Positions 24,243 to 61,330 of a stretch of DNA of 64,000 nt are shown piece after piece. Positions within the stretch are counted from its first letter, which is position 1. Each line of letters starts with the position of its first letter. Origin of the DNA: Nitrospirota bacterium (GTDB lineage: Bacteria > Nitrospirota > Thermodesulfovibrionia > UBA6902 > JAJYJJ01); assembly GCA_021789595.1 (NCBI GenBank), contig JAJYJJ010000009.1:1274-65273 (forward strand), read 5' to 3'. The notes beneath the pieces were generated by a model, which saw only the letters and a list, made by a program, of their open reading frames with translations, was not told where the DNA came from and made no database searches. A program made the position numbers and the translations under genes.

Positions 24243-25118
24243 ATGGAAAAAAATAAGGTTATATTTGCCCTTGGGATAATTATCATTTTTGCCATTGTAG
24301 GCGCCGGCATCTCCATCGTATTCGGCAGATTTGTCAGCTTCAGCAACATCTCCAGCGTTGTTGCGGCCTCGGAAAAAACCGATGTAGCCGTACAGACGGG
24401 TATGGCAATCACAGATGCAGGCGGCGCAATCGCCTTTAACCCGCCCTCTGTCCAGGATGCGCCGGCAAACATAAAGGACGCGGTCATGCTCGGTCACAAC
24501 ATCCTGACGGATACCCGGAAATATGCGGGTCAATACGTTGGGAACAAGCTCGACTGTTCAAACTGTCATTTCAAGGGGGGCATGACCCAAGGCGGGAAAA
24601 ACGGAGGCCTCTCGCTTGTGGGAGTGGGTGCAACCTATCCCCAGTACAAGAAGAGACAGAACTATTCCGTGGACCTCGTGACACGAACAAATGACTGTTT
24701 TGAAAGGAGCATGAACGGCAAACCCTTGCCCGCTGACAGCCGGGAAATGATAGCTATAGTCACATATTATCAGTGGATATCAAAAGGACTGCCCATATAT
24801 GCCGATATCCCCTGGTTGGGGGTGAAACACCTCAAGAGTGGTCATAAGCCGGATGAGGTAAAGGGGAAGCAGGTCTTTGCAGACAAATGCGCCATGTGCC
24901 ACGGCAATAACGGCCAGGGAACCCCGGCGGCGCCGCCTCTGTGGGGAAAGGATTCCTTTAACGATGGCGCGGGTATGCATAAGCTGGAAAACCTTGCAGC
25001 CTTTGCCTATAAAAATATGCCAAGGGGAAATCCTGACCTTACCCCTGAAGATGCCCTGGATGTAGCAGCGTTTGTTACAACCCAGCCAAGACCTCATTTT
25101 GTGCCCAGAAAGGGATAG
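24243..25118 (+). CDS. membrane-anchored dihaem cytochrome c, TsdA/SoxA-like (thiosulfate dehydrogenase family candidate)
   Basis: N-terminal TM anchor and two CxxCH motifs (CSNCH, CAMCH). 'YVGNKLDCSNCH' and a free Cys in 'TNDCFERSMNG' resemble the TsdA haem-1 region with its Cys ligand (recalled from memory). Confidence 0.5.
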   Translation: MEKNKVIFALGIIIIFAIVGAGISIVFGRFVSFSNISSVVAASEKTDVAVQTGMAITDAGGAIAFNPPSVQDAPANIKDAVMLGHNILTDTRKYAGQYVGNKLDCSNCHFKGGMTQGGKNGGLSLVGVGATYPQYKKRQNYSVDLVTRTNDCFERSMNGKPLPADSREMIAIVTYYQWISKGLPIYADIPWLGVKHLKSGHKPDEVKGKQVFADKCAMCHGNNGQGTPAAPPLWGKDSFNDGAGMHKLENLAAFAYKNMPRGNPDLTPEDALDVAAFVTTQPRPHFVPRKG

Positions 25119-25126
25119 GAGGATTT

Positions 25127-26482
25127 ATGCAGTTTCCCATCTTTCAGGTACCGCATTTAGGCAACGGCATGACAATCGCACTGGATGCAGTGCTGCATGT
25201 GATCATAAGCCACGGACTGGCTATCGGCGCAATAACGCTCATCGTAATAAGTGAATACATGGGATTTAAGAAGTCTTCCCAGGACTGGGAAAATTTTGCA
25301 AAGGACTTTCTGAAATTCACCATTATAATCACCACAGGTGTCGGAGCGGTAACGGGAGTCGGCATATGGCTTATTACCAGCGCCCTTTCACCCCTTGGCA
25401 TAGGCTCTATGCTTCGTGTCTTTTTCTGGCCATGGTTTATTGAATGGATGATATTCACCAGTGAGGTGATTTTTCTTCTCCTCTACTACTTTACCTGGGA
25501 TAAATGGACAAGTGAGAGGAAGAAGCAGCATATTTATCTGGGAGCCGGCTATACCATTTTCGCTCTTTCCTCTGCCTTTCTGATTACAGGTATACTGGGT
25601 TTTATGCTTACTTCTGATGGCTGGCCCTGGGATAAAAGTATCTTATCTGCTTTTTTTAATCCAAGTTACCTACCTCAACTGCTATTGAGGATAGGTATTG
25701 CTTTAGCGCTTGGTACCGTATTCTCTGTGGCATTTCTTCTTTTTACCAGAAGGGAAAGTGGCTTCCGCAAAGAAGCCCTGAACTTTTTCGGAAAGGTTGC
25801 CCTGCTTTCATTATCGGCAACGGTTATATTCACCTGGTGGTATTTCAGCGTCGTCCCTTCATCGTTCAAAACCCACGCTAAATTTGCTGCCCTGACTTCC
25901 CACTTTTCCCAGCAACCTGAAATTTTCTGGATTGCGAATATTACCGCTGCTTTCCTGTTGTTCGTGTTAGCCCTGTCTGCCATGAGAGGTTCCACCCTTC
26001 TGGTTAAAATTCTCATTCTCCCTGCAATTTTGATATCCATGGGTTTTGTAAGTGAATTTGAACGTATAAGGGAGTTCATCAGAGGTCCTTACCTCATGCC
26101 GGGTTACATGTATGCTAATCAGGTATTGTTGAAGGAGACCCCCGTATTGGACAAAGAGGGGTTATTGAAGAATGCATACTGGTATAATTCAATCACAAAG
26201 AGACCTGATGTAGTGAATCAGGGCGCATACCTCTTTGCACAGAACTGTTCAGCATGCCATACCATCGGAGGAATTAATGACATTGCAAAGAGGGTGCAGG
26301 GAAGGACAGAGGATGGAATCTTTGTCATCCTCGGCCATACCCATGATATGGTTCCCTTCATGCCTCCTTTTTCAGGGACAGAGCAGGAGCGGAGGGTAAT
26401 GGCAAGCTTTCTCTATAAGCTATCAACGGGAAGGCTCAAAATGGGTGCACCTTCCCGTTTTACACCAGGGAGGTGGGAATGA
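25127..26482 (+). CDS. CydA-like (cytochrome bd subunit I N-terminal half-like) membrane domain fused to a C-terminal monohaem cytochrome c
   Basis: TM1 His 'DAVLHVIISHGLAIG', 'GVGAVTGVGIW' and 'FTSEVIFLLLYYFTWDKW' parallel CydA 'MYHFLFVPLTLG', 'GVATGLTMEF' and 'FLESTFVGLFFFGWDRL'. The C-terminal 'CSACH...MPPF' is a class I cytochrome c domain. Confidence 0.5.
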   Translation: MQFPIFQVPHLGNGMTIALDAVLHVIISHGLAIGAITLIVISEYMGFKKSSQDWENFAKDFLKFTIIITTGVGAVTGVGIWLITSALSPLGIGSMLRVFFWPWFIEWMIFTSEVIFLLLYYFTWDKWTSERKKQHIYLGAGYTIFALSSAFLITGILGFMLTSDGWPWDKSILSAFFNPSYLPQLLLRIGIALALGTVFSVAFLLFTRRESGFRKEALNFFGKVALLSLSATVIFTWWYFSVVPSSFKTHAKFAALTSHFSQQPEIFWIANITAAFLLFVLALSAMRGSTLLVKILILPAILISMGFVSEFERIREFIRGPYLMPGYMYANQVLLKETPVLDKEGLLKNAYWYNSITKRPDVVNQGAYLFAQNCSACHTIGGINDIAKRVQGRTEDGIFVILGHTHDMVPFMPPFSGTEQERRVMASFLYKLSTGRLKMGAPSRFTPGRWE

Positions 26483-28071
26483 ATAGCCTCTTCGACATAA
26501 TGCTCTCAAAACCGCTTCCGGATGCGTGGCTCCGTGGTCTCCTTTTTGCCTCCTTCACCCTTCATATGGTATTTGTTCTCTTAACTTTAGGGACTGCCAT
26601 CCTTTCTGTTTACTATTTTATTGATGCCCGATGGACCGGTAAACCGGAAGAGTTGCGTATGGATAAGAGGATATTAAAGACCTTCATGGCCCACAAGAGC
26701 CTGGCAGTGGTGCTGGGAGTTGCACCATTGCTTCTGATCCAGATCGGCTTTACCGTCCCCTTCTTTACCGGGGTTAATCTACTTGCGCCTTTATGGATGT
26801 TAGTCATTGTATTTCTGGTAGTGGCATTTTTGTCCTTTGATGCCCTGGGGCACAAAATGTATGTGCACCCTTATTTACATCTGGTTTTTGGCATCATTGC
26901 CCTCCTCCTTCTCCTTGCAGTTCCTGCAGTATTCGTCGGGATTCTGGTGGTGGCAGAAAATCCGGAAAAGTGGTTAACAATAATCAGTAGTGGCTATAAG
27001 CTAAGGGGTTCCTTAGCCTTACACTGGCTTTTCAGATACCTGCATGTCCTCGGGGCTGCGGTTGTATTCGGTGCAGCATTTCATTATTTCTTCTCAGCAA
27101 AAGATGAAACCGAAAAGAGGTCACTGCTTAAATGGATCATTGCCGGGATATTGCTTCAGATCATCCTCGGCACAACGCTCTACAGTTCTTTATTAGAAAA
27201 ACCTGATTACATCACCAATGCTTCATTATTTATTGGCGTCGTCGGTGTCGCATTATTATTGTGGATAATTTATCTCAATGTGGGTAAAAAGAGCACTTTA
27301 GATATCAGAACAGTACTACCTCTCTTAATGCTCATACTTATACCAATGCTTTTAGCAAGACAATTTATTCAGTATAAGAAGTTTCTGCCCCTTGAAAAAC
27401 AGTTACAGGCAAACGCTCAAGCTTACCAAAAAGAATTGCAGCCCTATTCCCAGGAAGCCCTTAATAAATATAAAGACGATTTAAAAGTGGTCTATGACAA
27501 TGGCGAGACCATATATTCAAAGAGCTGTGCCTTCTGTCACGGAGAAAAGGCGGATGGTATCGGACCAGAAGCAAAAAACCTTACAATCCCTCCGGAAGAC
27601 ATATCGGCTATAAGAACCACAAGAACGCATCTTCATAAGATACTAGTCGAAGGCGTTTCGGGCTCTGCCATGCCTTACTTTACTTTTTTTGATAGGTATA
27701 AAATAGACAGCTTGATCGATTATCTGGATAAAAAATATCATGTTCTAAGTTTACCTGAACCTCTTCCTGTTAAAATCTCTGATACAGCATTGCAACAGGC
27801 CCAGAAAATTTATAATGAAACCTGCTCCGGGTGTCATGGAATGGATGGCAGAGGTTCAGCGCTTTCAAAAGGTTTTCAGCCCCAGCCTCCGGACTTTACC
27901 GTTTACAGCTTATCGCCTAAGAGGGCCTTTGATGTCATAACAAAAGGTTATCCAGGGACTGCGATGCCATCATTTAGCAACCTGCCGGAAGAGGTCCGAT
28001 GGAGCCTGGTAAAAATTATTAATGACAAAAGAATCCCTGAACTGACAGGAAGGGGAAAGATAAGAAAATGA
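26473..28071 (+). CDS. second CydA-like membrane domain fused to a C-terminal CcoP-like dihaem cytochrome c
   Basis: TM1 'FTLHMVFVLLTLGTAIL' (cf. CydA 'YHFLFVPLTLGMAFL') and 'APLWML...FLSFDALGHKMY'. C-terminus has 'CAFCH...GSAMP' and 'CSGCH...GTAMPSF' haem sites. The start overlaps the previous stop by 10 bp. Confidence 0.5.
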   Translation: MGMNSLFDIMLSKPLPDAWLRGLLFASFTLHMVFVLLTLGTAILSVYYFIDARWTGKPEELRMDKRILKTFMAHKSLAVVLGVAPLLLIQIGFTVPFFTGVNLLAPLWMLVIVFLVVAFLSFDALGHKMYVHPYLHLVFGIIALLLLLAVPAVFVGILVVAENPEKWLTIISSGYKLRGSLALHWLFRYLHVLGAAVVFGAAFHYFFSAKDETEKRSLLKWIIAGILLQIILGTTLYSSLLEKPDYITNASLFIGVVGVALLLWIIYLNVGKKSTLDIRTVLPLLMLILIPMLLARQFIQYKKFLPLEKQLQANAQAYQKELQPYSQEALNKYKDDLKVVYDNGETIYSKSCAFCHGEKADGIGPEAKNLTIPPEDISAIRTTRTHLHKILVEGVSGSAMPYFTFFDRYKIDSLIDYLDKKYHVLSLPEPLPVKISDTALQQAQKIYNETCSGCHGMDGRGSALSKGFQPQPPDFTVYSLSPKRAFDVITKGYPGTAMPSFSNLPEEVRWSLVKIINDKRIPELTGRGKIRK

Positions 28072-29516
28072 AGAGCAGAAAGATACTTTCAATCGTTCAA
28101 ATGAACGACAGCCATGCCTATTTTGATTTACACCAGGAGATGTTCTGGCAGGGCGACCACGCGGTATACCGTCCCGCCGGAGGTTACGCGCGCATCGCCA
28201 CGATTGTAAAACAGATTCGGGCTGAGAGCCAGGGACGCATTCTCTTTTGCGACTGCGGCGATACCCTCCATGGCACCTATCCTGCCCTGGACACACAGGG
28301 ACAGGCTTTGGTCCCTGTTTTGAATTCATTGGGGCTTGATGCCATGACAGCTCACTGGGAATTTGCTTACGGTCCAAAGGTATTTAACCAGCGGGTTGCT
28401 GAACTGAATTATCCGATGCTGGCAAACAATGTCTATGATAAAGAGACAAAGAAGCCGGTCTATCGGTCGTATGCCGTAAAAGAGATTGGCGGATTACGGA
28501 TCGGCCTTGTGGGGATAGCCTCAAACATTGTGGACAAGACCATGCCGCCTTCTTACAGCGAAGGCATATTCTTTACCCTGGGCAGGGACGAACTTCCGCC
28601 AATTGTCGATACGTTACGCACTCAGGAAAAGGCAGACTTAATCGTTTTGGTCTCGCACCTCGGGTTCCCTCAGGAGATGAAGCTTTTGTCCGAGGTGCAC
28701 GGCATAGATATCTGTCTCAGCGGCCATACGCATAACCGCCTGTACAAGGCGGTTCTCAATGGGAAAACTATTGTTATACAGTCAGGCTGCCATGGTTCTT
28801 TTTTGGGTCGCCTTGACCTGGAGGTGGAGGATAGACAAATCGTCGTTTACCGGCACCGGTTGATTGAGGTTGAAGCAGCAATACAACCTGACCCCGCAGT
28901 AGATGACCTGGTAAGACAGGCGCTCGCACCCTATAAGAATGACCTCTCAGAGGTTGTCGGTGAAACTGCCACAGCACTCAACCGAGGAACAACCCTGGAG
29001 GCCACAATGGACAATTTTCTCCTTCAGGCTTTACTCGAAAGCACCGGTGCGCAATTAGCATTTTCGAATGGCTGGCGCTACGGCGCACCGATAGTTCCCG
29101 GGAAGATAACCTTGAATGACCTTTACAACATTATTCCCATGAATCCACCTGTCTCAACAGTAGAGTTGGCAGGAGAGGAAATCAAGGTAATGTTGGAGGA
29201 GAACCTCGAAAGGACGTTTTCATGCGATCCGTACCAGCAGATGGGAGGGTATGTCAAGCGCTGTATCGGTCTTAATGTATACTTTAAGATAGAGAACCCT
29301 CCAGGACACCGTATTCAAAAACTATTTGCAGGCAATGAAGAGGTACAGCCCGGCCGGCACTACACAGCGGCATTCGTCACGCCGCAAGGGGTCCCTCAGA
29401 AATACGGCCGCAATCGCGAAAACCGGTCGGAACGAACCATAGATGCGCTGCGAAAATATCTGGTGGTGCATCGCCCCCTTCATGCAGAACTCAGAGGCAC
29501 ATTTGTGGCGGTATAA
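28068..29516 (+). CDS. 5'-nucleotidase/SoxB-family dimetal phosphoesterase (no signal peptide)
   Basis: Calcineurin-like motifs 'MNDSHAYFD', 'CGDTLHG', 'GHTHNRL' and a 5'-nucleotidase C-domain. Overlaps the upstream gene by 4 bp. Confidence 0.6.
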   Translation: MKSRKILSIVQMNDSHAYFDLHQEMFWQGDHAVYRPAGGYARIATIVKQIRAESQGRILFCDCGDTLHGTYPALDTQGQALVPVLNSLGLDAMTAHWEFAYGPKVFNQRVAELNYPMLANNVYDKETKKPVYRSYAVKEIGGLRIGLVGIASNIVDKTMPPSYSEGIFFTLGRDELPPIVDTLRTQEKADLIVLVSHLGFPQEMKLLSEVHGIDICLSGHTHNRLYKAVLNGKTIVIQSGCHGSFLGRLDLEVEDRQIVVYRHRLIEVEAAIQPDPAVDDLVRQALAPYKNDLSEVVGETATALNRGTTLEATMDNFLLQALLESTGAQLAFSNGWRYGAPIVPGKITLNDLYNIIPMNPPVSTVELAGEEIKVMLEENLERTFSCDPYQQMGGYVKRCIGLNVYFKIENPPGHRIQKLFAGNEEVQPGRHYTAAFVTPQGVPQKYGRNRENRSERTIDALRKYLVVHRPLHAELRGTFVAV

Positions 29517-36085: not shown

Positions 36086-36138
36086 TTGTAAACCATTCTA
36101 ATATTATGAGTTGACAATCCTATCTTCTTTAGTAAAAT
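36086..36138 (+). promoter_or_regulatory. bio operon promoter (-35 TTGACA at 36111-36116, -10 TAAAAT at 36133-36138) overlapping a BirA-operator-like dyad TTGTAAACC-N15-GTTGACAA
   Basis: The left half-site TTGTAAACC is identical to the E. coli bioO half-site (recalled from memory). The right half GTTGACAA differs by one base from GTTTACAA. Confidence 0.4.
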
Positions 36139-36147
36139 ATATACCTG

Positions 36148-37107
36148 ATGATAGATCTTCTCGAAACCATCCTTGAAGAATCCACATTTGATGGGCTGAC
36201 AAGTGTAGAGACGGCCATTACACTTGTCAATGAGGACATATACCGTCTTATGGATCTATCAAACAGGTTGAGGCAGGGCTTCAGGGGCAATAGGATTGAT
36301 ATCTGCTCTATTGTTAATGCAAAGTCAGGTGCATGCACCGAAGACTGCCACTATTGTGCACAGTCTGCAAAAAGCAACGCAGGGGTAAAGGTCTACCCCC
36401 TCTTACCGGATGAGATAATTACTGAAGCGGCAAGGGCTGCAATGGAAAATGGTGCAAAGAGGTTCTGCATCGTTACAAGTGGTAAAAAGGTCAACAATGA
36501 TGATCTTAAGAGGATATGCAGGGTTGTTACACAGATAAGGGAGCTTGGGCTGCTTCCATGCGCTACACTTGGTCTTTTAAATAGAGACGAGCTTATGGAG
36601 TTAAAGGATGCCGGCCTTGAAAGGTTTCACCACAATATTGAGACCTCAAGGGATTTCTTCCCGAGGATATGCAGAACCCACAGATATGAGGATAAACTCA
36701 TGACAATAGAGGCTGTGAAGGATACAGGCCTTTCGCTCTGTTCAGGCGGGATCTTTGGCATGGGAGAGTCATGGAAGGACAGGATAGAAATGGCCTTTGA
36801 ACTGAGGGAAATAGGTGCTGATTCGATTCCAATAAACTTTCTTACCCCAATAAAGGGAACCCTCCTTGGCGATATGGAAATGCTTTCACCAATCGAGGCG
36901 CTGAGGATCATAAGCCTCTACCGACTCATCCTTCCATCAAAGGAAATAAGGGTCTGTGGTGGAAGGAATGTGGTATTAAGAGAATTAAATTCTTTTATAT
37001 TCATGGCAGGCGCAAATGGATTTCTCATCGGCAATTACCTCACAACCACAGGCAGGGAGCCAAAGGCTGACCTGAAACTCCTTGATGACCTGAACCTTGA
37101 GAGATAA
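36148..37107 (+). CDS. bioB: biotin synthase
   Basis: Radical-SAM 'CTEDCHYCAQS' and typical BioB length and patterning (319 aa). Confidence 0.9.
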   Translation: MIDLLETILEESTFDGLTSVETAITLVNEDIYRLMDLSNRLRQGFRGNRIDICSIVNAKSGACTEDCHYCAQSAKSNAGVKVYPLLPDEIITEAARAAMENGAKRFCIVTSGKKVNNDDLKRICRVVTQIRELGLLPCATLGLLNRDELMELKDAGLERFHHNIETSRDFFPRICRTHRYEDKLMTIEAVKDTGLSLCSGGIFGMGESWKDRIEMAFELREIGADSIPINFLTPIKGTLLGDMEMLSPIEALRIISLYRLILPSKEIRVCGGRNVVLRELNSFIFMAGANGFLIGNYLTTTGREPKADLKLLDDLNLER

Positions 37108-37954
37108 TTTATACAGCCTTCGAATGAGGGCATCAAAGGGCGGCCTTCATATCTCAGGCGCAGAGGGCATATTCACAGAAGATGCAATCCCAAGAAGAAT
37201 GAAAGACTTCTATCTCCGTGCTATACATCATGAAAGGGGTAAACCCTCTGAGATACATATAACCGCCACGGCCTTGAAATCCCGGCCAATCATAATAAAA
37301 ACCCTTCCCCTGATCACTGTCGAAACAAAAAATCCAGCCGATGCCATAAGAACTGCATCCAGCATCCTGAGCCTTAAAGGGATATCAAAGGATGCAATAG
37401 ACCTTGCAATAAATGGTATTTTTAAGGGTCATGTCATGCGGGGGGCTATGATTGTTGATGCAGAAGATGCCATACGACTGGAGCCTGACAGACAAAGAGG
37501 TGTAAGGGCATCCATGCTCGGCATTAAAGATGAGGCATACCGGATATTATCAAAAAGGCTCTCAAGACTCGGAATCAACAATGTGACAGTCAGGGATGCC
37601 TTAATACTTGCCTCAAAGGTGGCCTCTCACCTCTGTATCCTTGGAGAGCTCTGCGTATCTGATGACCCTACATATACAACAGGCTATGTTGCAACAGGGG
37701 ATTATGGATACATAAGACTGCCCAATATAAAGCGCTACGGCCTTAAAAAAGGAGGACGGGCATTCTTTATAAAAAAAGGAACGAATATCAAAAAACTGGT
37801 AGAATATCTCGAAGAAACACCTGCAATGGTTGGTGAGGTTTCTGAATGCAGGGCAACCATAACCATGGAGGAGTTCAGTGATATCCTTGATAGGAAACCC
37901 TGTAGCAGGAAAGGGTTCATTAAAAAAGATTGCAAAGGCAGAAGCACTGCTTAA
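37097..37954 (+). CDS. bioW: 6-carboxyhexanoate-CoA ligase (pimeloyl-CoA synthetase)
   Basis: 'YSLRMRAS', 'LASKVASHLCILGELCVSDDPTYTTGYVA' and 'GGRAFFIKKG' align with B. subtilis BioW. It has a ~30 aa C-terminal extension that overlaps the next gene. Confidence 0.7.
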   Translation: MRDNLYSLRMRASKGGLHISGAEGIFTEDAIPRRMKDFYLRAIHHERGKPSEIHITATALKSRPIIIKTLPLITVETKNPADAIRTASSILSLKGISKDAIDLAINGIFKGHVMRGAMIVDAEDAIRLEPDRQRGVRASMLGIKDEAYRILSKRLSRLGINNVTVRDALILASKVASHLCILGELCVSDDPTYTTGYVATGDYGYIRLPNIKRYGLKKGGRAFFIKKGTNIKKLVEYLEETPAMVGEVSECRATITMEEFSDILDRKPCSRKGFIKKDCKGRSTA

Positions 37955-38729
37955 GGCAAAAGGTATTGAGTTTAAGTCCTTTATAACAAGAAAAAGAGGA
38001 GATGCTGAATACTTTGCAAAAAGGGCTGTGGATGAAGGTGCAGGGCTTGTCATTGCTGCAGGGGGAGATGGGACATATAACGAGGTAATAAACGGCCTTG
38101 CACTTACAGATGTTCCAATGGCCATTGTTGCACTCGGGACAACCAATGTCCTTGCAAAGGAGCTCAATATACCAGAGGATGTAGAGGCTGCATTAAAGAC
38201 TGCCTTTGAAGGCAACATCCACCATGTCTCCCTTGGCAGGATTGATGGAAGGTTCTTTTCCCTGATGGCAGGTATTGGCTTTGATGGCAACGCGGTTTAC
38301 AGGGTTGGTCATGGATTAAAACGCCTTGGAAGGATTGGCTACATCCTGTCAGGCCTTAATGTCCTTTTGAATTACAGGCCAGAGGAGATAGAGCTGAGGA
38401 TTGATGACAGGGTACTCAGGGGCTATAGCGCAATCATCGGAAATGCAAGATGTTATGGAGGTAATTTTAATATCACTCCCAAGGCAGATATGCTTGAGCC
38501 TTTGTTAGACCTATGCCTTCTTATGGGAAACAAGAGGCGTGATATGCTAAGATATGTAATTGGTATATTTGCTAATGGACGCCATTTGAGGTTCAGGGAT
38601 GTGCATTATGAGAAGGTCAAGGGGATTGAGGTTATTGGGAATTCCCACATCCAGATAGACGGGGATTATTTCGGAAGACTACCTGTAAACATAGAGGTTG
38701 TTCCTGATGCACTCAGGCTCATCTGGTAA
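37878..38729 (+). CDS. DAGK_cat-family lipid kinase (YegS/DgkA-like)
   Basis: 'MISLIGNPVAGKGS', 'VIAAGGDGTYNEV' and a C-terminal accessory domain. Overlaps bioW by 77 bp. Confidence 0.7.
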   Translation: MISLIGNPVAGKGSLKKIAKAEALLKAKGIEFKSFITRKRGDAEYFAKRAVDEGAGLVIAAGGDGTYNEVINGLALTDVPMAIVALGTTNVLAKELNIPEDVEAALKTAFEGNIHHVSLGRIDGRFFSLMAGIGFDGNAVYRVGHGLKRLGRIGYILSGLNVLLNYRPEEIELRIDDRVLRGYSAIIGNARCYGGNFNITPKADMLEPLLDLCLLMGNKRRDMLRYVIGIFANGRHLRFRDVHYEKVKGIEVIGNSHIQIDGDYFGRLPVNIEVVPDALRLIW

Positions 38730-38747
38730 AGACATTCAGGAGGGGAT

Positions 38748-40073
38748 ATGAATATGGGCAGATTTGAAAGAGACCTCATAAGATTTCCAGAGGCCATTGA
38801 TGATGAGGATTATGTAATCGTTACCTATTATCTTGAAACAGCAATGGATATTGAAAAGGCAGCCAATGCCTTTGCAGCAGAACAGTCAACAGGAACATGG
38901 CAGAGGGTTGGCTATGAAACTGATGACCTGAGAGAAAAACACGGCGCAAAGGTCATCGGCATCTATCCCATCCCTGGCGAATGTCCTCAGAATCTTCCAA
39001 GCGGCACGACCATGAAGGAGTTTGGTGCTGGCAATAGATGCATTAGGGCGTCAGTCTTAAGATTGGCCTTCCCGCACATAAACTTTGGCCCTAAGATTCC
39101 AAACCTCCTTACAGCAGTGGCAGGGAATCTCTATGAGATGGGTTCATTTACAGCCATAAAGCTCATTGATATAGAGTTCCCAGATTCCTACCTCAAGGAT
39201 TTTACAGGACCAAGATTCGGGGTAAAGGTCTGCAGAGACATCCTCGGTGTTTATGGCAGACCACTGATAGGGGCCATTATTAAACCATGTGTAGGTCTGA
39301 GTGCAGAAAGGCTTGCAGAGCTTGCATACCAGGGAGCAAAAGGAGGTCTTGACTTTATCAAGGACGATGAACTCCTTGCTGATACAACATATAACTCGAT
39401 AAAAGACAGGGTAAAACATGTGATGGCAGCCTTAAAGAGGGCAGATGAGGAAAAGGGCGAAAAGACCATGTATGCCTTTAATATCACAGACAGGCTGGAC
39501 AGGGTTAAGGAGCTCCATGATATTGTTGTAGAAAATGGCGGCAACTGTGTGATGCTTAATGCTGCAACCATCGGGCTTGAGGCAATGAGGGAGCTTGCTG
39601 AATACACAGAGGTCCCCATACACTGCCACAGGGACTTTGCACCAATGTGGGCAAGGAGTCCCTATCTTGGGATCTCATTTCCAGCCCTAACAAAACTCTT
39701 CAGGCTGTGCGGTGCAGACCAGATACACTGCGGCGCAATACAGGGCAAACTATACGAGACAGACGAGGAAGTCGTTACGAATATGAGGGCATGCACCCTT
39801 GAATTTGGAGGTATAAAGGATGCAATGCCTGTTAGCTCTGGGGGCCAGTGGGCAGGCAAGTCACCTGTGAATGCAAGAAAGATAGGACACTATGACTTCC
39901 TGCACCTTTCTGGCGGAGGCATCTATGCACATCCTGATGGTGCAGAGGCAGGTGCAAGAAGCGTAAGGCAGGCATGGGATGCTGTTTTAAAAGGGATCCG
40001 ATTAGAGGATTATGCAAAGGAAAAAAGAGAGCTCGCAAGGGCTATTGAACACTTCGGAAGTGTGATATACTGA
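38748..40073 (+). CDS. rbcL: ribulose-1,5-bisphosphate carboxylase large-subunit family, form III-like with complete catalytic residue set
   Basis: Catalytic residues are all present: 'AAEQSTGTWQ' (E60/T65 equivalents), 'VAGNLYEM' (N123), 'IIKPCVGLS' (K175), 'GGLDFIKDDE' (K201/D203/E204), 'IHCHRDF' (H294/R295), 'ADQIHCGAIQGKL' (H327/K334), 'VSSGGQ' and 'SGGGIYAHPDG'. The C-terminus 'HPDGAEAGARSVRQAWDAVLKGIRLEDYAKEKRELARAIEHFG' is near-identical in pattern to archaeal form III enzymes as I recall them. Confidence 0.75.
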   Translation: MNMGRFERDLIRFPEAIDDEDYVIVTYYLETAMDIEKAANAFAAEQSTGTWQRVGYETDDLREKHGAKVIGIYPIPGECPQNLPSGTTMKEFGAGNRCIRASVLRLAFPHINFGPKIPNLLTAVAGNLYEMGSFTAIKLIDIEFPDSYLKDFTGPRFGVKVCRDILGVYGRPLIGAIIKPCVGLSAERLAELAYQGAKGGLDFIKDDELLADTTYNSIKDRVKHVMAALKRADEEKGEKTMYAFNITDRLDRVKELHDIVVENGGNCVMLNAATIGLEAMRELAEYTEVPIHCHRDFAPMWARSPYLGISFPALTKLFRLCGADQIHCGAIQGKLYETDEEVVTNMRACTLEFGGIKDAMPVSSGGQWAGKSPVNARKIGHYDFLHLSGGGIYAHPDGAEAGARSVRQAWDAVLKGIRLEDYAKEKRELARAIEHFGSVIY

Positions 40074-40080
40074 ATACGCC

Positions 40081-41454
40081 ATGGCTGTAAAAGGTATCTT
40101 GGAGGCCATTGCTCGATTCATCGAAAAGGAACATATCCTTTCCTGCAAGGAAGACCTCATATGCTATTCATCTGATGCAACATACCATAATGCCATGCCT
40201 GATGTAGTGGTCATCCCTGAGGAAAAGAGGGAGATAATACAAGTCCTGAGGTTTGCAAACAGCGAGAGGATACCTGTTACTCCAAGGGGTGCAGGCACAG
40301 GGCTTTCTGGTGGGGCATTGCCAGTCAGAGGAGGTATCGTCCTTGCTACAACGAGGTTAAATCGCATCATAGACATAGATGAATCAAATCTCTATGCTGT
40401 TGTCGAACCAGGTGTGATAACAGCATCACTACACTCAGAGGTGGAGCAGAGGGGATTATTTTATCCGCCTGACCCATCAAGCCTCAGGGTATGCACAATA
40501 GGCGGTAATCTCGGCCACTCAGCAGGCGGGCCAAGAGGACTCAAATACGGTATAACAAGAAATTATGTAATGGGGCTTGAGGTTGTCCTTCCCCAGGGTA
40601 AGATAATAAACACAGGTGCAAGGACTGTTAAGAGTGTCTCAGGTTATGACCTGACAAGGCTCATGACAGGCTCAGAAGGGACATTGGGAGTTATTACAAA
40701 GGCACTGCTTAGACTTATACCGAAACCAGAGGCCTCCATGACATTCATGGCATTTTTTGACAGCATCTCTCTCGCAGCGGATGCGGTGGTTGGAATAATC
40801 AAAAAAGGCATCCTTCCAACAAGCCTTGAATTCATGGACGGCACAACAATAAAGGCGATAATCCAGTATAAGTCCATAGAACTGCCAGAGGATGCAGATG
40901 CAGCACTCCTTATAGAGGTAGATGGCTTTGAATCAGAGGTAAAAAGGCAGGCAGCGCTTCTTATGGATGTCCTTCATGGTTCGGGTGCAAGGGGCATACA
41001 TTCCGCAAAGGATAAAACGGAAATGGAAGATATGTGGAATGCGCGCAGGATGGCCCTCCCTGCCCTTTCAAGGATAAGGCCAAGCACAATCTTAGAGGAT
41101 GCCACTGTGCCAAGGCATCAGGTTCCAATAATGGTAAGGGCAATACAGGGCCTTTCTATAAAATATGATATTCCAATTGGTATTTTTGGCCATGCAGGTG
41201 ACGGCAACCTGCATCCAACCATACTTACAGATGTCCATGATAAGGACGAGATGGAAAAGGTGGATAAGGTTATAGAGGAGATATTTGAGATTGCCCTTTC
41301 CCTCGGTGGAACCCTTACAGGTGAGCACGGCATTGGGGTGAGCAAGGCAAGGTTTCTCAAAAAAGAGATTGGTGAAGAAGGCATTCGGCTTATGAGGGCA
41401 ATCAGGAATATCTTTGACCCAAATGGTATAATGAACCCCGGGAAGATATGCTGA
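40081..41454 (+). CDS. FAD-binding oxidoreductase, GlcD/D-lactate dehydrogenase family (glycolate oxidase subunit-like)
   Basis: 457 aa with FAD_binding_4 'PRGAGTGLSGGALP' and FAD-oxidase_C 'GHAGDGNLHP...GEHGIG'. Confidence 0.8.
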   Translation: MAVKGILEAIARFIEKEHILSCKEDLICYSSDATYHNAMPDVVVIPEEKREIIQVLRFANSERIPVTPRGAGTGLSGGALPVRGGIVLATTRLNRIIDIDESNLYAVVEPGVITASLHSEVEQRGLFYPPDPSSLRVCTIGGNLGHSAGGPRGLKYGITRNYVMGLEVVLPQGKIINTGARTVKSVSGYDLTRLMTGSEGTLGVITKALLRLIPKPEASMTFMAFFDSISLAADAVVGIIKKGILPTSLEFMDGTTIKAIIQYKSIELPEDADAALLIEVDGFESEVKRQAALLMDVLHGSGARGIHSAKDKTEMEDMWNARRMALPALSRIRPSTILEDATVPRHQVPIMVRAIQGLSIKYDIPIGIFGHAGDGNLHPTILTDVHDKDEMEKVDKVIEEIFEIALSLGGTLTGEHGIGVSKARFLKKEIGEEGIRLMRAIRNIFDPNGIMNPGKIC

Positions 41455-42110
41455 GACAATGCCTTAAGCTGTTTAAACAGTCCTATATCAGGCGGGTTGC
41501 AGCGTCTTTCTGGCTCCTGATTATTGGCATCTGGCTTATGACTCCGCCTATCGCAACAGCCATTGATAACAAACCGCTCAAGGCAATATTGAAGGAAAAA
41601 GGGATATACCGCATAGATGAGCCGAGGATCGTCATAAAAAAATTAACATATGAGCTCATCCTCTTTGACGGCAGCAGGGAATTAAAGACCTATTCTATCT
41701 ACCTTGGAAGCGATGAGAATAACGACAAGGAGGTCCGCGGTGATAGAAATACACCTGAGGGCGAGTTTTATATATGCATGCGGAAAAAGAGCAAAAGATT
41801 TTACAGATTTCTCGGACTCAGCTACCCTGACCTGAAAAGGGCAGAATACGGCCTCAGACATAACCTGATTACAGAGTATGATTACTGGCGGATTTTCCAG
41901 GCTATAAACGATAAAAAACAACCGCCATGGAATACAAGACTCGGAGGGTTTATAGGAATCCATGGAATGGGGAAGAAAAGGGAAAAGATATTAAGGGATC
42001 TGCCCTTCAAGATAAACTGGACAAAGGGCTGTATTGCACTTTCAGACAGGGATATAGAGGAGATATTCTCAGTTGCAAGGATTGGCACGCCTGTGATAAT
42101 AACTCAATAA
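41448..42110 (+). CDS. L,D-transpeptidase (YkuD family) with signal anchor
   Basis: 'GGFIGIHGMG' and the catalytic 'TKGCIAL' motif. Confidence 0.65.
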   Translation: MLRQCLKLFKQSYIRRVAASFWLLIIGIWLMTPPIATAIDNKPLKAILKEKGIYRIDEPRIVIKKLTYELILFDGSRELKTYSIYLGSDENNDKEVRGDRNTPEGEFYICMRKKSKRFYRFLGLSYPDLKRAEYGLRHNLITEYDYWRIFQAINDKKQPPWNTRLGGFIGIHGMGKKREKILRDLPFKINWTKGCIALSDRDIEEIFSVARIGTPVIITQ

Positions 42111-42115
42111 TAAGA

Positions 42116-42571
42116 TTAGGGCCCGTGCCCTGTCCATATACCAGCACCAACCGCAATAAGGCTAAGGATTAAAAGAAACCAGTGAAATACCTGGAGCCTG
42201 AAGAATACCCGGGATGCATCCATATCCTTTGAAAAGAGGGTTTTAAAGATTATCGGCTCAAAGATAAAGAGTATGAGGACATATGTAGTCCATGCAACAA
42301 TCATTACCCATATCCCTATGCCTCTACCAGTAAGCAGGAAAGACATGCCCATCCTGTAAAGGAGAAACAGTCCTGTTATTCCTGCAGTTATGGAATATAT
42401 CTTTGCAAGCCGTGCAAACCTGTGTTCAACCCCCTGAAACATAATGGCCTTTTCAATAGAGCCCGCTGTCCGCATGATTATCGGAAACATCACCATGGTC
42501 ACAAACGCAACGCCGCCAATCCATAAAACTACTGATATGACATGGATAATCAGCAATAGTGTAAAGAGCAT
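42116..42571 (-). CDS. small integral membrane protein of unknown function (4 TM)
   Basis: 151 aa, strongly hydrophobic helices, no motif recognised. Confidence 0.4.
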   Translation of the reverse strand: MLFTLLLIIHVISVVLWIGGVAFVTMVMFPIIMRTAGSIEKAIMFQGVEHRFARLAKIYSITAGITGLFLLYRMGMSFLLTGRGIGIWVMIVAWTTYVLILFIFEPIIFKTLFSKDMDASRVFFRLQVFHWFLLILSLIAVGAGIWTGHGP

Positions 42572-42662: not shown

Positions 42663-42737
42663 TGGAGCCGGCGGGGAGGATCGAACTCCCGACCTGCTGA
42701 TTACGAATCAGCTGCTCTACCTCTGAGCTACGCCGGC
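42663..42737 (-). tRNA. tRNA-Thr (anticodon CGU), CCA encoded
   Basis: The reverse complement folds as a cloverleaf: acceptor GCCGGCG/CGCCGGC, D-arm GCTC..GAGC, anticodon arm GCTGA-TTCGTAA-TCAGC (anticodon CGT), T-arm GGGAG-TTCGATC-CTCCC, then CCA. Confidence 0.85.
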
Positions 42738-48016: not shown

Positions 48017-51020
<3,004 letters not shown>

Positions 51021-51024
<4 letters not shown>

Positions 51025-59087: not shown

Positions 59088-61330
59088 TCAGTCAGTGCCA
59101 CGATCTCTTGTTTCAAGTGTTTTTTCATGGGGCACTGAAAGTGCAAATGCCTTTGATAGTTCCGCCACGGCCTGCATAAACCTTTTCTTTCCATCATCCT
59201 GCAGGAGGATACACTCCATTGCCTCTTTTATAACAGTCAACCTTTCGGCAGGACTGCCGGATAAGAATCTTGAATAGTCAAATCCATGAAACATTGATGA
59301 AACAATCTCATATTTCTCAAGCATTATAGCGACTGCCTCTTCCTGAGGAATGCCTGTCATGTCACGGTCTCTTTCTATGTAATCGGAAAGTGCCTTCTTC
59401 AGTTCATCTGCAATGCCAAGGTAATCAACCACCAGACCACCTGGTTTATCCTTAAATACCCTGTTGACTCTGGCTATTGCCTGCATAAGCCCGTGTCCGC
59501 GCATTGGCTTGTCTATATACATGGTATGAAGACAGGGAGCATCAAAGCCTGTGAGCCACATATCACGCACAATGACAAGTTTAAATGGATGCTCAGTTTT
59601 TTTTGAAAAGGTTTTTGCAAGTTTCTCTCTCTTTGCTTTGTTCCTGATATGCTGCTGCCATTCTACAGGATCAGATGCAGAACCGGTCATAACTACCTTC
59701 AAGAATCCCTTATCATTATCTTTATGATGCCATTCAGGCCTGAGTTTGATTAATGCATTATAGAGATCAACACATATACGCCTGCTCATGCAGACGATCA
59801 TGCCTTTCCCGTCCATAGCCTCAAGCCTTTTCGCAAAGTGATCAATAATGTCTTTCGCCACGAGGCCGATACGTTTTTCTGTCCCGACCATTGCCTCAAG
59901 CTGTGCCCATTTCCGCTTTAGCTTTTCCTTTACATTTATCTCTTCTCCCTCTGTCACTTCTTCAAATTCAGGGTCAATCCTTGGCCTTTCTTCTTCCCCT
60001 CTATAGGCGTACCTGTGAATCCGATAAACGAGGCGTTCGGAAGGGCATCTCTCATATGTCTGGCAAAGCCATCTATGAAGTCATACTGGCTCCTGTGCGC
60101 CTCATCAGCAATAACAATTATATTCCTTCTGTCAGAGAGCTTGGGATAATCCCCTCCTTTTTCAGGCAAAAACTTCTGTATGGTTGTAAACACAACACCG
60201 CCTGATGCGACATTGAGAAGCTTTCTAATATCTTCCCTGCTTCCCGCCTGCACGGGTGTCTGCCTGAGCAGGTCTCTGCACCGTGAAAATGTCCCGAACA
60301 ACTGGTCATCAAGGTCATTGCGGTCTGTAAGAAGAACGATCGTTGGATTCTGCATTTCAGGATGCTGTATTATCTTCCCAGCATAAAATACCATTGTCAG
60401 GCTTTTGCCACTCCCCTGTGTATGCCAGACAACACCAACCCGTTTGTCACCCTTTGGAGATACCGCCTGAATCGTACATTCAACAGCCTTATTTACTGCA
60501 TGGAATTGATGATATCCTGCCATCTTCTTTACAATTTCAGAGCCGTCAATCTCAAAGACAAGGAAGTATCTTAGTAAATCAAGAAATCTCTGCCTTTCAA
60601 AGATTCCCTTAATCATTACCTCAAGTTCAGGAAGACCCTTCGGAGCTAAATCATCTCCTGTTATTGTTCTCCACGGCAGAAACCATTCCCAGTCTGCAGT
60701 CAGAGTCCCTGCCCTTGCCTCTATACCGTCAGAGACAAGGAGGATTCCGTTATAAAGGAAAAGAGAGGGGATTTCTTTTTTGTATGTCTGCAATTGATTA
60801 AATGCATCCTTAACTGTTGCATTTTCGTCAGAGGGATTCTTAAGTTCAATTACACCTAATGGTATGCCATTCACGAAAACAACTATGTCAGGCCGTCTGT
60901 TACTTTGTCCTTCAACAACTGTGAACTGATTAACTGCCAGCCAGTTGTCGTTATCAAGATTGTCGAAATCTATAATCCCGACACTGTCACCAACAATCCG
61001 GCCTTCTGCGTCTTTATATTCAACCTCTATACCTTCAGTAAGCATTTTATGAAACCGATGATTGTTTGCTGCAAGAAGGGGCGATTCGTGAATAATCCTT
61101 GTTAATTTACGGAAGGCATCCTCAATTGCCTCATCTGGAATAGCAGGATTGATTTTCGTTAAAGCAGAACGAACCCTATTCTCAAGAATCACATCGCTGT
61201 AAGATGCCCGTTCAGCAAATAATTCACCAGAAGCAATATCTGGTTCATTGAGAACGGAATACCCCAACCCCTTGAACCAGTCAAGGGCTGCTTGTTCTAT
61301 TTCTGATTCTGTAATAATATTTCTCTTCAT
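59088..61330 (-). pseudogene. hsdR: type I restriction enzyme R subunit (HsdR), disrupted: frameshift at ~59955, internal deletion and truncated C-terminus
   Basis: Upstream ORF (458 aa) has the nuclease N-domain and helicase motifs '[13 protein letters not shown]', '[11 protein letters not shown]', 'GFTGTP'. Downstream ORF (289 aa, GTG start overlapping the first stop as GTGA) resumes at 'WAQLEAMVG' and carries '[15 protein letters not shown]'. About 100 aa expected between motif III and this point are missing, and the usual ~200 aa C-terminal domain is absent. Confidence 0.65.

Follow-up and report, generated by a model that had tools for sequence, protein, structure and literature searches.

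A Cys177-bearing form IV RuBisCO-like protein and its GlcD-type neighbour in a Nitrospirota bacterium

Why a gene of the rbcL family should lie in a run of biotin and lipid genes, immediately upstream of a glycolate-oxidase-like flavoenzyme, is the question raised by a 64-kb stretch of Nitrospirota DNA (hereafter the window). Six ORFs on the + strand (36148-42110) follow one another head to tail exactly where the initial annotation had placed them, with successive junctions of -11, -77, +18, +7 and -7 nt. The run opens with bioB (36148-37107), which encodes a radical SAM biotin synthase (Radical_SAM and BATS domains; TIGR00433, 395 bits against a cut-off of 225), and continues with bioW (37097-37954) for 6-carboxyhexanoate-CoA ligase (PF03744, 244 bits; NF002360, 240 bits against 226), so that both products exceed their curated equivalog cut-offs. 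The domain of the bioW product stops at residue 245 of 285, and its C-terminal extension of ca. 40 residues overlaps by 77 nt the gene of a YegS/Rv2252/BmrU-family kinase with the DAG-kinase fold (37878-38729; DAGK_cat and YegS_C; TIGR00147, 151 bits against 119). The rbcL-family gene (38748-40073), with an AGGAGG ribosome-binding site 5 nt upstream, is followed by a gene for a GlcD-family FAD-linked D-2-hydroxy-acid dehydrogenase of the glycolate or D-lactate type (40081-41454; FAD_binding_4 and FAD-oxidase_C), and the run closes with a YkuD-domain L,D-transpeptidase (41448-42110; PF03734, 68 bits). Directly 5' of bioB, a sigma-70-like promoter candidate (TTGACA-16-TAAAAT, 36111-36138, + strand), identified by its match to 11 of 12 consensus positions, probably marks the start of a six-gene transcription unit.

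The rbcL-family protein contains the RuBisCO large-subunit domains PF02788 and PF00016, and its sequence identifies it as a form IV RuBisCO-like protein (RLP) rather than the form III-type RuBisCO that had first been proposed. In a phmmer search of solved structures (PDB) the highest scores belong to RLPs (353 bits for that of C. tepidum, 307 for 3NWR and 290 for 2QYG), whereas form III structures reach 214-225 bits. Furthermore, the top six Foldseek matches to its AF2 model (pLDDT 92.4) are all RLPs, including 1YKW, 1TEL, 2QYG and 3NWR. No NCBIfam model is passed at its cut-off: the protein scores 305 bits against 497 for rubisco_III (TIGR03326), 329 against 700 for OiaX (NF042437), and 226 against 514 and 251 against 409 for the two MtnW models (TIGR03332 and NF007095, respectively). 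In a distance-based neighbor-joining tree (149 sequences, 340 columns, four bona fide RuBisCO references), the split between forms I, II and III (two sequences) and all remaining proteins, the present one among them, is recovered in 97, 94 and 96% of bootstraps, depending on which of three distance measures is applied. The phylogenetic placement thus falls on the form IV side, the outcome that the initial annotation had itself named as evidence against its reading. Within the same tree, the branching order among the four clades A-D has 33-35% support.

The active site of this RLP is unusually well preserved for its class. When the protein is aligned to the verified spinach sequence, 19 of 21 canonical RuBisCO positions match: E60, T65, W66, N123, K175, K201, D203, E204, H294, R295, H327, K334, L335, S379, G380, G381, G403 and G404 (spinach numbering) are kept, and position 173 is Ile, as in the R. 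rubrum form II enzyme. Retained in this way are the enolisation centre with its carbamate and Mg2+ residues (K201, D203, E204, K175 and H294), the proximal phosphate cradle (T65, W66, G381, G403 and G404) and the carboxylate-handling set E60/N123/K334. The motif GGLDFIKDDE (residues 199-208; 39342-39371, + strand), in which K205 corresponds to the carbamylated K201 and D207 and E208 to the Mg ligands, is invariant across a 44-sequence family alignment. The distal-phosphate ligands R295 and H327 are also kept, so the substrate may yet be a bisphosphate.

The two substitutions are found at positions that do not vary among the form I, II and III sequences taken as references. K177 is replaced by Cys181 (codon TGT, 39288-39290, + strand), and H298, in the distal phosphate site, by Ala298 (codon GCA, 39639-39641, + strand). 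Since the CO2-derived carboxyl of 2CABP is hydrogen-bonded by K177 together with K334 (bioRxiv 10.64898/2025.12.22.696010), and since the cysteine is a signature of the whole lineage (63/64 clade A, 22/22 clade B and 28/29 clade D sequences, with K177 replaced in about 98% overall), the protein is not catalytically complete as had been supposed, and the claim of a full set of carboxylation residues breaks down at these two positions. In this lineage the residue at position 298 is small or hydrophobic: Ala is found in 53 of 64 clade A sequences and Phe in all 29 of clade D. The C-terminus does resemble archaeal form III enzymes, its last 58 residues being 56% identical to those of T. kodakarensis. 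The resemblance is nevertheless non-diagnostic, because the same stretch is similarly close to OiaX (53%), R. rubrum form II (50%) and the archaeal sister clade (58%), and the form III assignment drawn from it does not hold. The initial annotation was right, on the other hand, that the protein is hardly degenerate, RLP though it is. RLPs with Cys at position 177 constitute an uncharacterised form IV lineage that keeps nearly the entire RuBisCO active site.

The neighbourhoods of related genes bear on the second part of the question. Among dereplicated, informative contexts, the RLP gene has a GlcD gene, a GlcF-like Fe-S gene or both at a distance of no more than 6 kb in 6 of 10 from clade A (bacterial) and in 7 of 7 from clade D (its archaeal sister clade), as against 1 of 69 in the comparison clade C of DUF1537-kinase-linked RLPs (Fisher p = 3.6e-11). 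About 40% of the informative clade A contexts (L001, L004, L007 and L119) contain neither gene, and part of the bacterial signal is due to shared ancestry, because several of the Nitrospirota loci are related. At least eight distinct arrangements are observed, among them RLP-GlcD; RLP-x-GlcD-GlcF-Tal; RLP-(AI-2E)-GlcD-x-CCG; a divergent GlcD<-GlcF<-|->RLP; GlcD-NaH-GlcF-RLP; and TIM-GlcF-RLP with overlapping stop and start codons, with L175 as one further independent case. In addition, the pairwise identities of the GlcD proteins mirror the RLP tree, GlcD divergence following RLP divergence. These observations support the GlcD-type FAD dehydrogenase as a putative evolutionarily conserved partner of the Cys177 lineage, and the fact that distantly related bacteria and archaea share the pairing suggests a pathway not described so far. 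The functional pairing suggested by the initial annotation is in this respect upheld in both domains, but not its connection with photorespiratory glycolate salvage.

The dehydrogenase of the window scores below the TIGR00387 cut-off (521 versus 568 bits), and its best PDB matches are glycolate oxidase (9QGZ, 326 bits), LctD (7QH2_C, 310 bits) and LDHD (265 bits); glycolate, D-lactate or another D-2-hydroxy acid, which sequence does not distinguish, are its candidate substrates. In the relatives, GlcD is usually accompanied by a GlcF/HdrD-type Fe-S CCG subunit (Fer4 and two CCG domains), while no GlcE or GlcF-like gene is found in the 64-kb window. A lactate-type acid would be consistent with the best NCBIfam match of the GlcF-like protein, which is the LdhH lactate-dehydrogenase model (below cut-off), and with the presence of LarE in the Nitrospirota block.

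Beyond the observed placement, residue pattern and neighbourhood, we infer a substrate class, a cleavage chemistry and a direction of flux. In the reading that we favor, with confidence only a little better than even, the Cys177 RLP works with the 2-hydroxy-acid dehydrogenase by a RuBisCO-type cleavage that feeds GlcD. The RLP would bind a keto sugar phosphorylated at C1, or the corresponding 2-carboxy beta-keto acid, in either case without a distal phosphate. It would form the Mg-bound enediolate and then cleave between C2 and C3, so that 3-phosphoglycerate is released along with a free D-2-hydroxy acid, either glycolate or D-lactate. This acid would in turn be oxidised to the 2-oxo acid by GlcD, together with GlcF in those relatives that have it. 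RLP precedents for this chemistry come from the D-apiose and D-hamamelose pathways: 3-oxo-isoapionate-4-P is decarboxylated or transcarboxylated/hydrolysed by RLPs (PMC6302742), and the RLP step of the hamamelose pathway is said to give rise to 3-phosphoglycerate and glycolate (PMC8914248). A more speculative extension, which we regard as a long shot, is that the Cys177 RLPs and GlcD/GlcF form a hitherto undescribed CO2-incorporating salvage route, in which a 1-phospho-ketose without a distal phosphate is carboxylated and cleaved. The best candidate substrate would be 5-deoxyribulose-1-phosphate, which would stem from 5'-deoxyadenosine, a by-product of radical SAM enzymes; this agrees with the Ala or Phe at position 298, the BioB gene in the same operon and the MTAP and SAH hydrolase genes upstream of the RLP in a different lineage. 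The products would then be 3-phosphoglycerate and D-lactate, the latter oxidised to pyruvate by the GlcD/LdhH-like dehydrogenase; if true, the form IV side of the RuBisCO superfamily would thereby include an enzyme that carboxylates its substrate.

Of the alternatives, the one that survives best, although we consider it unlikely, is that the RLP merely enolises or isomerises its substrate in the manner of MtnW or the R. rubrum RLP, salvaging a SAM by-product (MTA or 5'-deoxyadenosine), with GlcD as uncoupled, inherited synteny. Characterised MtnW and DeepYkr RLPs do use methylthio-pentulose phosphates (PMC6302742), the RLP gene of one lineage (L002/L102/L174) is directly preceded by those of an MTAP-like PNP and an SAH hydrolase, and radical SAM genes are found no more than three genes away from the RLP in L175, L004, L007 and the window itself (BioB). 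However, these radical SAM genes share no homology with each other, the PNP/SAHH adjacency is limited to that single lineage, and N123, K334, R295 and H327, which the enolase and isomerase RLPs have lost, are kept here; nor does synteny alone explain the rearranged, divergent and overlapping GlcD/GlcF configurations of the archaea.

Three archaeal contexts offer the CCG protein alone and one pairs it with HdrA and MvhD, and the tighter partner of the RLP may therefore be the Fe-S protein rather than the hydroxy-acid dehydrogenase. Taken to its conclusion, this would make the GlcF/HdrD-like protein the true partner, with the enediolate or the Cys177 thiol engaged in a redox step and GlcD and HdrA as interchangeable flavoprotein modules, a proposal that we find distinctly improbable. 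All 7 clade D contexts have the CCG gene next to the RLP gene, four of them at 0-18 nt upstream or overlapping it, while GlcD is present in just three; genes for HdrA-like, MvhD/FlpD, CCG and RLP proteins stand in a row in L125, and Cys177 is near-invariant. Against this, the 64-kb window contains no CCG gene, CCG proteins are commonly mere electron conduits for GlcD-type flavoproteins, and we know of no RLP with redox chemistry involving an Fe-S partner.

We regard as very improbable that the protein is a bona fide form III-like RuBP carboxylase/oxygenase able to work with Cys177 and Ala298, with GlcD oxidising glycolate derived from 2-phosphoglycolate, the product of the oxygenase reaction. 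All residues to which a part in acid/base catalysis or metal binding has been assigned are among those kept, GlcD is conserved beside the gene, the clade D sister proteins match the rubisco_III model best (344-388 bits), and c-type cytochromes and superoxide dismutase encoded in the window make exposure to O2 plausible. These points are outweighed by the position outside forms I-III in 94-97% of bootstraps, the failure to reach any RuBisCO model cut-off and the loss of the carboxylate contact K177 across the lineage. Moreover, as first noted for AMP phosphorylase and R15P isomerase, neither of these nor PRK or phosphoglycolate phosphatase is found among the larger, Pfam-scanned ORFs of the window, nor does any of the four recur among the neighbours of related RLPs.

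A role in biotin metabolism, as a biotin-independent carboxylase or a pimelate/biotin enzyme co-expressed with bioB and bioW, is hardly credible: it draws on the shared operon, on BirA and BioY beside GlcF-RLP at the archaeal clade D locus L127 and on a rhizobial RLP reported as required for biotin-independent growth (PMC8914248), but that RLP falls in the kinase-linked clade C, and two biotin-gene adjacencies in some 20 dereplicated contexts are near a rough chance estimate. In fact, of the 176 further loci that were retrieved, about 55 of them belonging to the clades of the present protein, not one has bioB, bioW, the kinase or YkuD adjacent to the RLP gene; the arrangement is peculiar to this genome, and a role embedded in a cofactor/lipid operon finds no support.

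Compared with the GlcDEF glycolate oxidase and the D-lactate dehydrogenases LctD and LDHD, the neighbour of the RLP has the same FAD_binding_4 and FAD-oxidase_C architecture, and the Fer4-CCG-CCG subunit beside GlcD in the relatives resembles GlcF and the Desulfovibrio-type D-LDH of GlcD plus an Fe-S CCG protein; unlike GlcDEF, the GlcD of the window is below the equivalog cut-off and lacks GlcE and GlcF within the window. The predicted model of the RLP shares its fold with form III RuBisCO (T. kodakarensis 1GEH/3A12; 8DHT) at TM 0.85-0.87, with 37-39% identity over residues 100-437. The IV-Photo group (C. tepidum RLP, R. palustris RLP2 2QYG) supplies the best structural match (TM 0.90) and the best solved sequence match (C. 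tepidum 1TEL/1YKW, 40% identity), but has lost T65, N123, R295, H327, K334 and S379, all six of which are kept here, and is placed outside the A-D super-clade in the neighbor-joining tree. The nearest characterised relatives are the DUF1537-kinase-linked IV-NonPhoto RLPs (OiaX/OiaC of D-apiose catabolism; Burkholderia fungorum 3NWR), with 36-46% identity; the proposed mechanism is modelled on their beta-keto-acid decarboxylation or transcarboxylation/hydrolysis (PMC6302742). They share E60, N123, K175, K201, D203, E204, H294, R295, H327, K334 and G403/G404 with the present protein and have likewise lost K177 and H298; clade C, however, has Ser177, Trp298, Phe66, Phe335 and Ser380 in place of Cys177, Ala298, Trp66, Leu335 and Gly380. 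A DUF1537 kinase lies beside the RLP gene, usually immediately downstream, at 67 of 69 clade C loci and is absent from the window and from all clade A, B and D loci examined, where GlcD/GlcF takes its place.

The RuBisCO large-subunit family gene of the window (38748-40073, + strand, encoding both domains) is, judged from its sequence, a form IV RuBisCO-like protein (RLP) of an uncharacterised lineage that carries cysteine at position 177 (spinach numbering throughout, unless stated) and has a conserved GlcD/GlcF partner, where GlcD is an FAD dehydrogenase and GlcF an Fe-S protein with Fer4 and two CCG domains. The initial annotation, which described a catalytically complete form III enzyme paired with GlcD, was largely accurate in what it observed and right about the pairing, but it missed two substitutions and was wrong as to form. 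Its six open reading frames are all present on the + strand, with exactly the boundaries proposed: BioB (36148-37107; TIGR00433, 395 bits against a cut-off of 225), BioW (37097-37954; PF03744, and NF002360 at 240 against 226), a DAG-kinase-fold kinase of the YegS/Rv2252/BmrU type (37878-38729; TIGR00147, 151 against 119), the RLP, a protein of GlcD architecture (40081-41454; FAD_binding_4 and FAD-oxidase_C; TIGR00387 at 521, slightly below its cut-off of 568) and a YkuD L,D-transpeptidase (41448-42110). The successive junctions measure -11, -77, +18, +7 and -7 nt, and a good Shine-Dalgarno sequence (AGGAGG) precedes the RLP gene. A single transcript from bioB to ykuD is plausible, because the region's best sigma-70-like site (TTGACA-16-TAAAAT, 36111-36138) lies directly 5' of bioB and no convincing terminator was seen within the run. 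The 77-nt overlap of bioW with the kinase gene (37878-37954) falls in a C-terminal extension of BioW, since the BioW domain stops at residue 245 of 285, and the kinase start cannot be shifted downstream because the N-terminal NPxAGxG motif begins at residue 6. No riboswitch was found in the operon by Rfam, leaving the bio genes without an associated one; the sole Rfam or ARAGORN match in the 64 kb is a tRNA-Thr (CGT) at 42663-42737 (- strand), between a convergent membrane-protein gene (42116-42571) and clpC.

Form III identity is contradicted, and was ruled out, by bit scores, curated cut-offs, the tree and the fold search. A PDB sequence search returned RLPs first (C. tepidum 1TEL/1YKW, 353 bits; B. 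fungorum 3NWR, 307; R. palustris RLP2, 290), with form III chains at 214-225 bits. The protein reaches no NCBIfam cut-off (OiaX 329/700, rubisco_III 305/497, MtnW 251/409, form II 193/489); OiaX is its best match there and JGI labels one relative OiaX/OiaC, an identity that was rejected since the score falls below the cut-off and the DUF1537 kinase partner is absent. The AlphaFold2 model (pLDDT 92.4) matches the same RLPs best (TM 0.87-0.90), form III structures coming second (TM 0.85-0.87). Phylogenetic placement, the check that the initial annotation had itself proposed, puts the protein on the form IV side, a result that the annotation had named in advance as refuting its reading. In a neighbor-joining tree of 340 shared columns, comprising the query, 115 database homologues, 23 locus-encoded homologues and 10 references (form I, form II, two form III, two IV-Photo, OiaX, Bacillus MtnW, a haloarchaeal kinase-linked RLP and a DeepYkr-type RLP found with mtnA), the split between forms I, II and III and all other sequences, the query included, has bootstrap support of 97% with Kimura, 94% with p- and 96% with gamma distances. 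As the initial annotation noted, the final 58 residues do resemble form III (56%), but the likeness is no marker of form, because the archaeal sister clade (58%), OiaX (53%) and form II (50%) match equally well; it was set aside as such a marker, being equally high in RLPs.

The active site was compared at the 21 positions usually listed, on a MAFFT alignment of 149 sequences. Spinach was represented by the PDB 8RUC/1IR1 chains and R. rubrum by 9RUB, and the T. kodakarensis, 8DHT (form IIIb), C. tepidum and R. palustris RLP sequences were taken from HMMER alignments to PDB chains. The query is canonical at 18 of the 21 (E60, T65, W66, N123, K175, K201, D203, E204, H294, R295, H327, K334, L335, S379, G380, G381, G403 and G404), and its Ile at position 173 resembles that of R. 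rubrum form II, so that 19 of the 21 match bona fide RuBisCO. The remaining two, K177 and H298, are invariant among the form I, II and III references used and are replaced by Cys 181 (TGT, 39288-39290) and Ala 298 (GCA, 39639-39641; query numbering). At atomic resolution, K334 and K177 of spinach RuBisCO hydrogen-bond the 2CABP carboxyl group, which mimics the added CO2 (bioRxiv 10.64898/2025.12.22.696010). The predicted site is thus remarkably complete for an RLP, yet not catalytically complete as had been claimed. Two related proteins, both deep within their own RLP clades by distance, dissociate the substitutions: P0075 (archaeal clade D) combines K177 with F298, differing from bona fide RuBisCO at H298 only, and P0020 (clade A; L176:5751-7073) combines C177 with H298. 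The two lend themselves to testing what residues 177 and 298 do.

The closest database proteins, 76-82% identical, come from Nitrospirota MAGs and metagenomes, and no exact match was found in the databases searched; the source organism is accordingly probably a Nitrospirota bacterium. Form IV sub-clades go by six names in secondary sources (PMC6389311, PMC6302742, PMC8914248), IV-GOS and IV-AMC among them. Here the tree resolved five groups: clade A (n = 64), to which the query belongs and which consists mainly of Nitrospirota, besides Latescibacterota and others; clade B, with Goldbacteria and Spirochaetia among its members; the widespread clade C (Paenibacillus, Cohnella, Pedobacter, haloarchaea, rhizobia, and the 3NWR and OiaX types); the archaeal clade D, including Hydrothermarchaeota-labelled and marine metagenome sequences; and a fifth group with a degenerate active site, found through its KPC motif. 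The branching order of clades A-D has only 33-35% support. Cys 177 occurs in 63/64 clade A, 22/22 clade B and 28/29 clade D sequences, with Ser in clade C; the residue at 298 also varies by clade, being Ala in A, Phe in D and Trp in C. All other canonical residues are kept in 29/29 clade D sequences; among the sub-types of clade A, that of the query (ETWN...GGGG) is fully conserved, and E60, T65, W66 and N123 are lost in others. A profile search of genome contigs with the full-length family alignment (DFIKDDEL pattern) was flooded by clade C, and the metagenome search therefore used an alignment trimmed to the KPC region. The lineage at loci L131-L173 (L131:4612-5925, L146:9581-10870, L159:9629-10798) carries the KPC (Cys 177) motif in a degenerate site (P123, S295, R298, Q327; K334 absent), is 31-39% identical to clade D and has GlcD/GlcF neighbours in 0/8 cases. 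The shared motif suggests that Cys 177 goes back to the ancestor of a large radiation of RLPs. Global Ocean Sampling had earlier noted that K177 is one of the positions poorly conserved in novel marine RuBisCO homologues (PMC1821046), so the radiation was in part already known.

A GlcD-like gene recurs beside related RLPs, mostly together with a GlcF/HdrD-like Fer4 and double-CCG protein. The bacterial arrangements are RLP-GlcD (window), RLP-GlcD-GlcF-transaldolase (L009, L010; L108 ends within GlcD), the same with a cytochrome c gene after the RLP (L015, L111, L113, L114), PNP-SAH hydrolase-RLP-(AI-2E)-GlcD-x-CCG (L002, L102/L105, L174) and radical SAM-RLP-GlcD-GlcF (L175); in archaea, GlcF and GlcD diverge from the RLP (L017, L095) or form GlcD-Na/H exchanger-GlcF-RLP (L093). 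When the RLPs were dereplicated at 90% identity and only contexts with sufficient flank were counted, one or both of GlcD and GlcF turned up within 6 kb in 6/10 clade A and 7/7 clade D contexts, compared with 1/69 in clade C, 0/2 in clade B and 0/8 in the fifth group (Fisher p = 3.6e-11, A + D versus C). The count leaves out L174-L176, of which L175 is an additional positive clade A context, L174 belongs to the same lineage as L102/L105, and L176, whose flank is short, has no GlcD there. Neither GlcD nor GlcF is present in four of the informative clade A contexts, and most of the RLPs of these four are altered (Ala at G404, Phe 298, other). Furthermore, all-against-all clustering found only GlcD/GlcF common to bacterial clade A and archaeal clade D, and GlcD pairwise identities follow RLP relationships, as for a co-inherited pair. 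Adjacency preserved despite rearrangement across two domains is a classical signature of functional coupling, and the suggested GlcD pairing is therefore well founded; it is real and, as far as the literature searched shows, undescribed, whether between RuBisCO-like proteins and GlcD, GlcF, glycolate oxidase, D-lactate or heterodisulfide reductase. The window contains no CCG gene, and a search for GlcF or transaldolase elsewhere in it found none.

In the Nitrospirota block (L015:8208-15444; also L009, L111, L114), LarE (TIGR00268), a TPR lipoprotein and the RLP are followed by an opposite-strand multihaem cytochrome (in some), GlcD, an LdhH/GlcF-like protein and a small TAL_FSA transaldolase; the window lacks this LarE and transaldolase, and in L011 and L109 the transaldolase directly follows the RLP without GlcDF. 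The bioB, bioW, kinase and YkuD genes adjoin an RLP nowhere else, tblastn of all four proteins against 173 other loci giving no match, and a conserved bio/lipid-kinase/YkuD operon was discarded on this result. As a control, the DUF1537 four-carbon acid-sugar kinase adjoins the clade C RLP in 67/69 dereplicated loci, usually immediately downstream, and is absent from all loci of clades A, B and D. A radical SAM gene lies within three genes of the RLP in 4 of about 12 clade A contexts (L175:5605-6981, L004:10064-11440, L007:10132-10977, window 36148-37107), but the four genes are of unrelated families, tblastn at 1e-8 giving no match between them; radical SAM as a shared partner was rejected, the L175, L004 and L007 neighbours being mutually non-homologous, and the proximity is at most a weak hint of a link to SAM by-product metabolism.

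In L001, L006 and L016 the RLP follows a housekeeping run (PriA, IspE-like kinase, PRPP synthase, L25, Pth, MoeA), and the MoeA immediately 5' of it is ~60% identical to that of the window (3504-4808). The RLP has thus moved between genomic settings, since the two genes are 34 kb apart in the window. Elsewhere in the window, a c-type cytochrome cluster (24243-29516) with a SoxA/TsdA-type dihaem cytochrome (24243-25118), two membrane proteins with C-terminal cbb3-type cytochrome c domains (25127-28071) and a SoxB-like Metallophos/5'-nucleotidase (28068-29516) resembles a module for the oxidation of thiosulfate or sulfur. The gene for the type I restriction protein HsdR is broken up on the - strand (59088-61330) into two adjacent frames bearing HSDR_N and SWI2/SNF2 (59954-61330) and domain 3 with the C-terminal region (59088-59957), probably as a frameshifted or truncated gene, and HsdS lies at 62091-63026. 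No Pfam family was matched at E <= 1e-5 by a 463-residue frame (49633-51024, - strand) that is flanked by enolase/FtsB-like genes and lpd-gcvH.

As to the reaction, the intact proximal phosphate cradle and the loss of the distal-site His 298 suggest a substrate phosphorylated only at its C1 end. In the preferred mechanism, the RLP would form a RuBisCO-type enediolate and then cleave C2-C3 to give 3-PGA plus a free D-2-hydroxy acid; oxidation of this acid would fall to GlcD, together with GlcF in loci that encode it. The acid is at least as likely to be D-lactate as glycolate, because the nearest solved relatives of GlcD are glycolate oxidase 9QGZ, the LctD subunit of lactate dehydrogenase and mammalian D-LDH, the Nitrospirota block contains LarE (TIGR00268, 309 against 150), and LdhH is the best NCBIfam match, below cut-off, of the GlcF-like protein. 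A specific version, speculative and with a small chance of being right, has 5-deoxyribulose-1-phosphate as substrate, derived from radical-SAM 5'-deoxyadenosine, for which a salvage route is known (PMC6079011); it draws on the hydrophobic residue 298, BioB in the operon, and MTAP and SAH hydrolase upstream in the L002 lineage.

An enolase or isomerase RLP with a merely syntenic GlcD is a less likely alternative: N123, K334, R295 and H327 are lost in such RLPs (MtnW, DeepYkr) but kept in the query and in clade C. A redox role with the CCG protein, perhaps through Cys 177, is a more doubtful proposition, suggested by the translational coupling seen in archaea and by the association with HdrA/MvhD. 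Archaeal RLPs have the Fe-S protein as a more constant partner than GlcD; stop and start codons overlap in TIM-GlcF-RLP (L097, L128), and L125:6091-10876 encodes an HdrA-like flavoprotein, MvhD/FlpD, the Fer4 and CCG protein and the RLP in a row, with a 4-nt CCG/RLP overlap, linking a heterodisulfide-reductase-type module rather than GlcD to the Fe-S partner. A true RuBP carboxylase with a photorespiratory GlcD is very improbable in view of the K177/H298 substitutions and the placement outside forms I-III. A biotin-linked role is barely tenable, for although biotin genes adjoin the RLP in the window (36148-37954, bioB-bioW) and in an archaeal locus (L127:237-1837, BirA with HTH and BPL domains, and BioY, directly 5' of GlcF-RLP), and a rhizobial RLP is reportedly needed for biotin-independent growth (PMC8914248), the two adjacencies are independent and, among about 20 dereplicated contexts, not above chance, and the rhizobial protein is from a different clade.

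The lineage bears on how carboxylation arose or was lost in the RuBisCO superfamily: its catalytic core is whole, including residues for the CO2-derived carboxylate, yet K177 has become a conserved Cys, and the RLP is co-inherited with a GlcD/GlcF-type dehydrogenase in Bacteria and Archaea. The pair may hold an RLP reaction that is new and a new connection between the metabolism of sugar phosphates and that of 2-hydroxy acids. For annotation, the case cautions against calling a form III RuBisCO from an almost full set of active-site residues, and genes of this kind should be left out when CO2-fixation potential is assessed in MAGs of Nitrospirota and archaea.

To our knowledge, only a handful of RLP functions are known, among them that of OiaC, whose products secondary sources give as 3-PGA and glycolate. 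The cleavage to 3-PGA and a D-2-hydroxy acid is preferred for the present lineage on account of the residues kept, the proposed C1 phosphate and the precedents of clade C and the hamamelose pathway. Characterised clade C RLPs act on 3-oxo-isoapionate-4-phosphate, a truncated analogue of the beta-keto-acid intermediate of RuBisCO, by decarboxylation or transcarboxylation/hydrolysis (PMC6302742), and the RLP step of the hamamelose pathway is described as leading to 3-phosphoglycerate and glycolate (PMC8914248).
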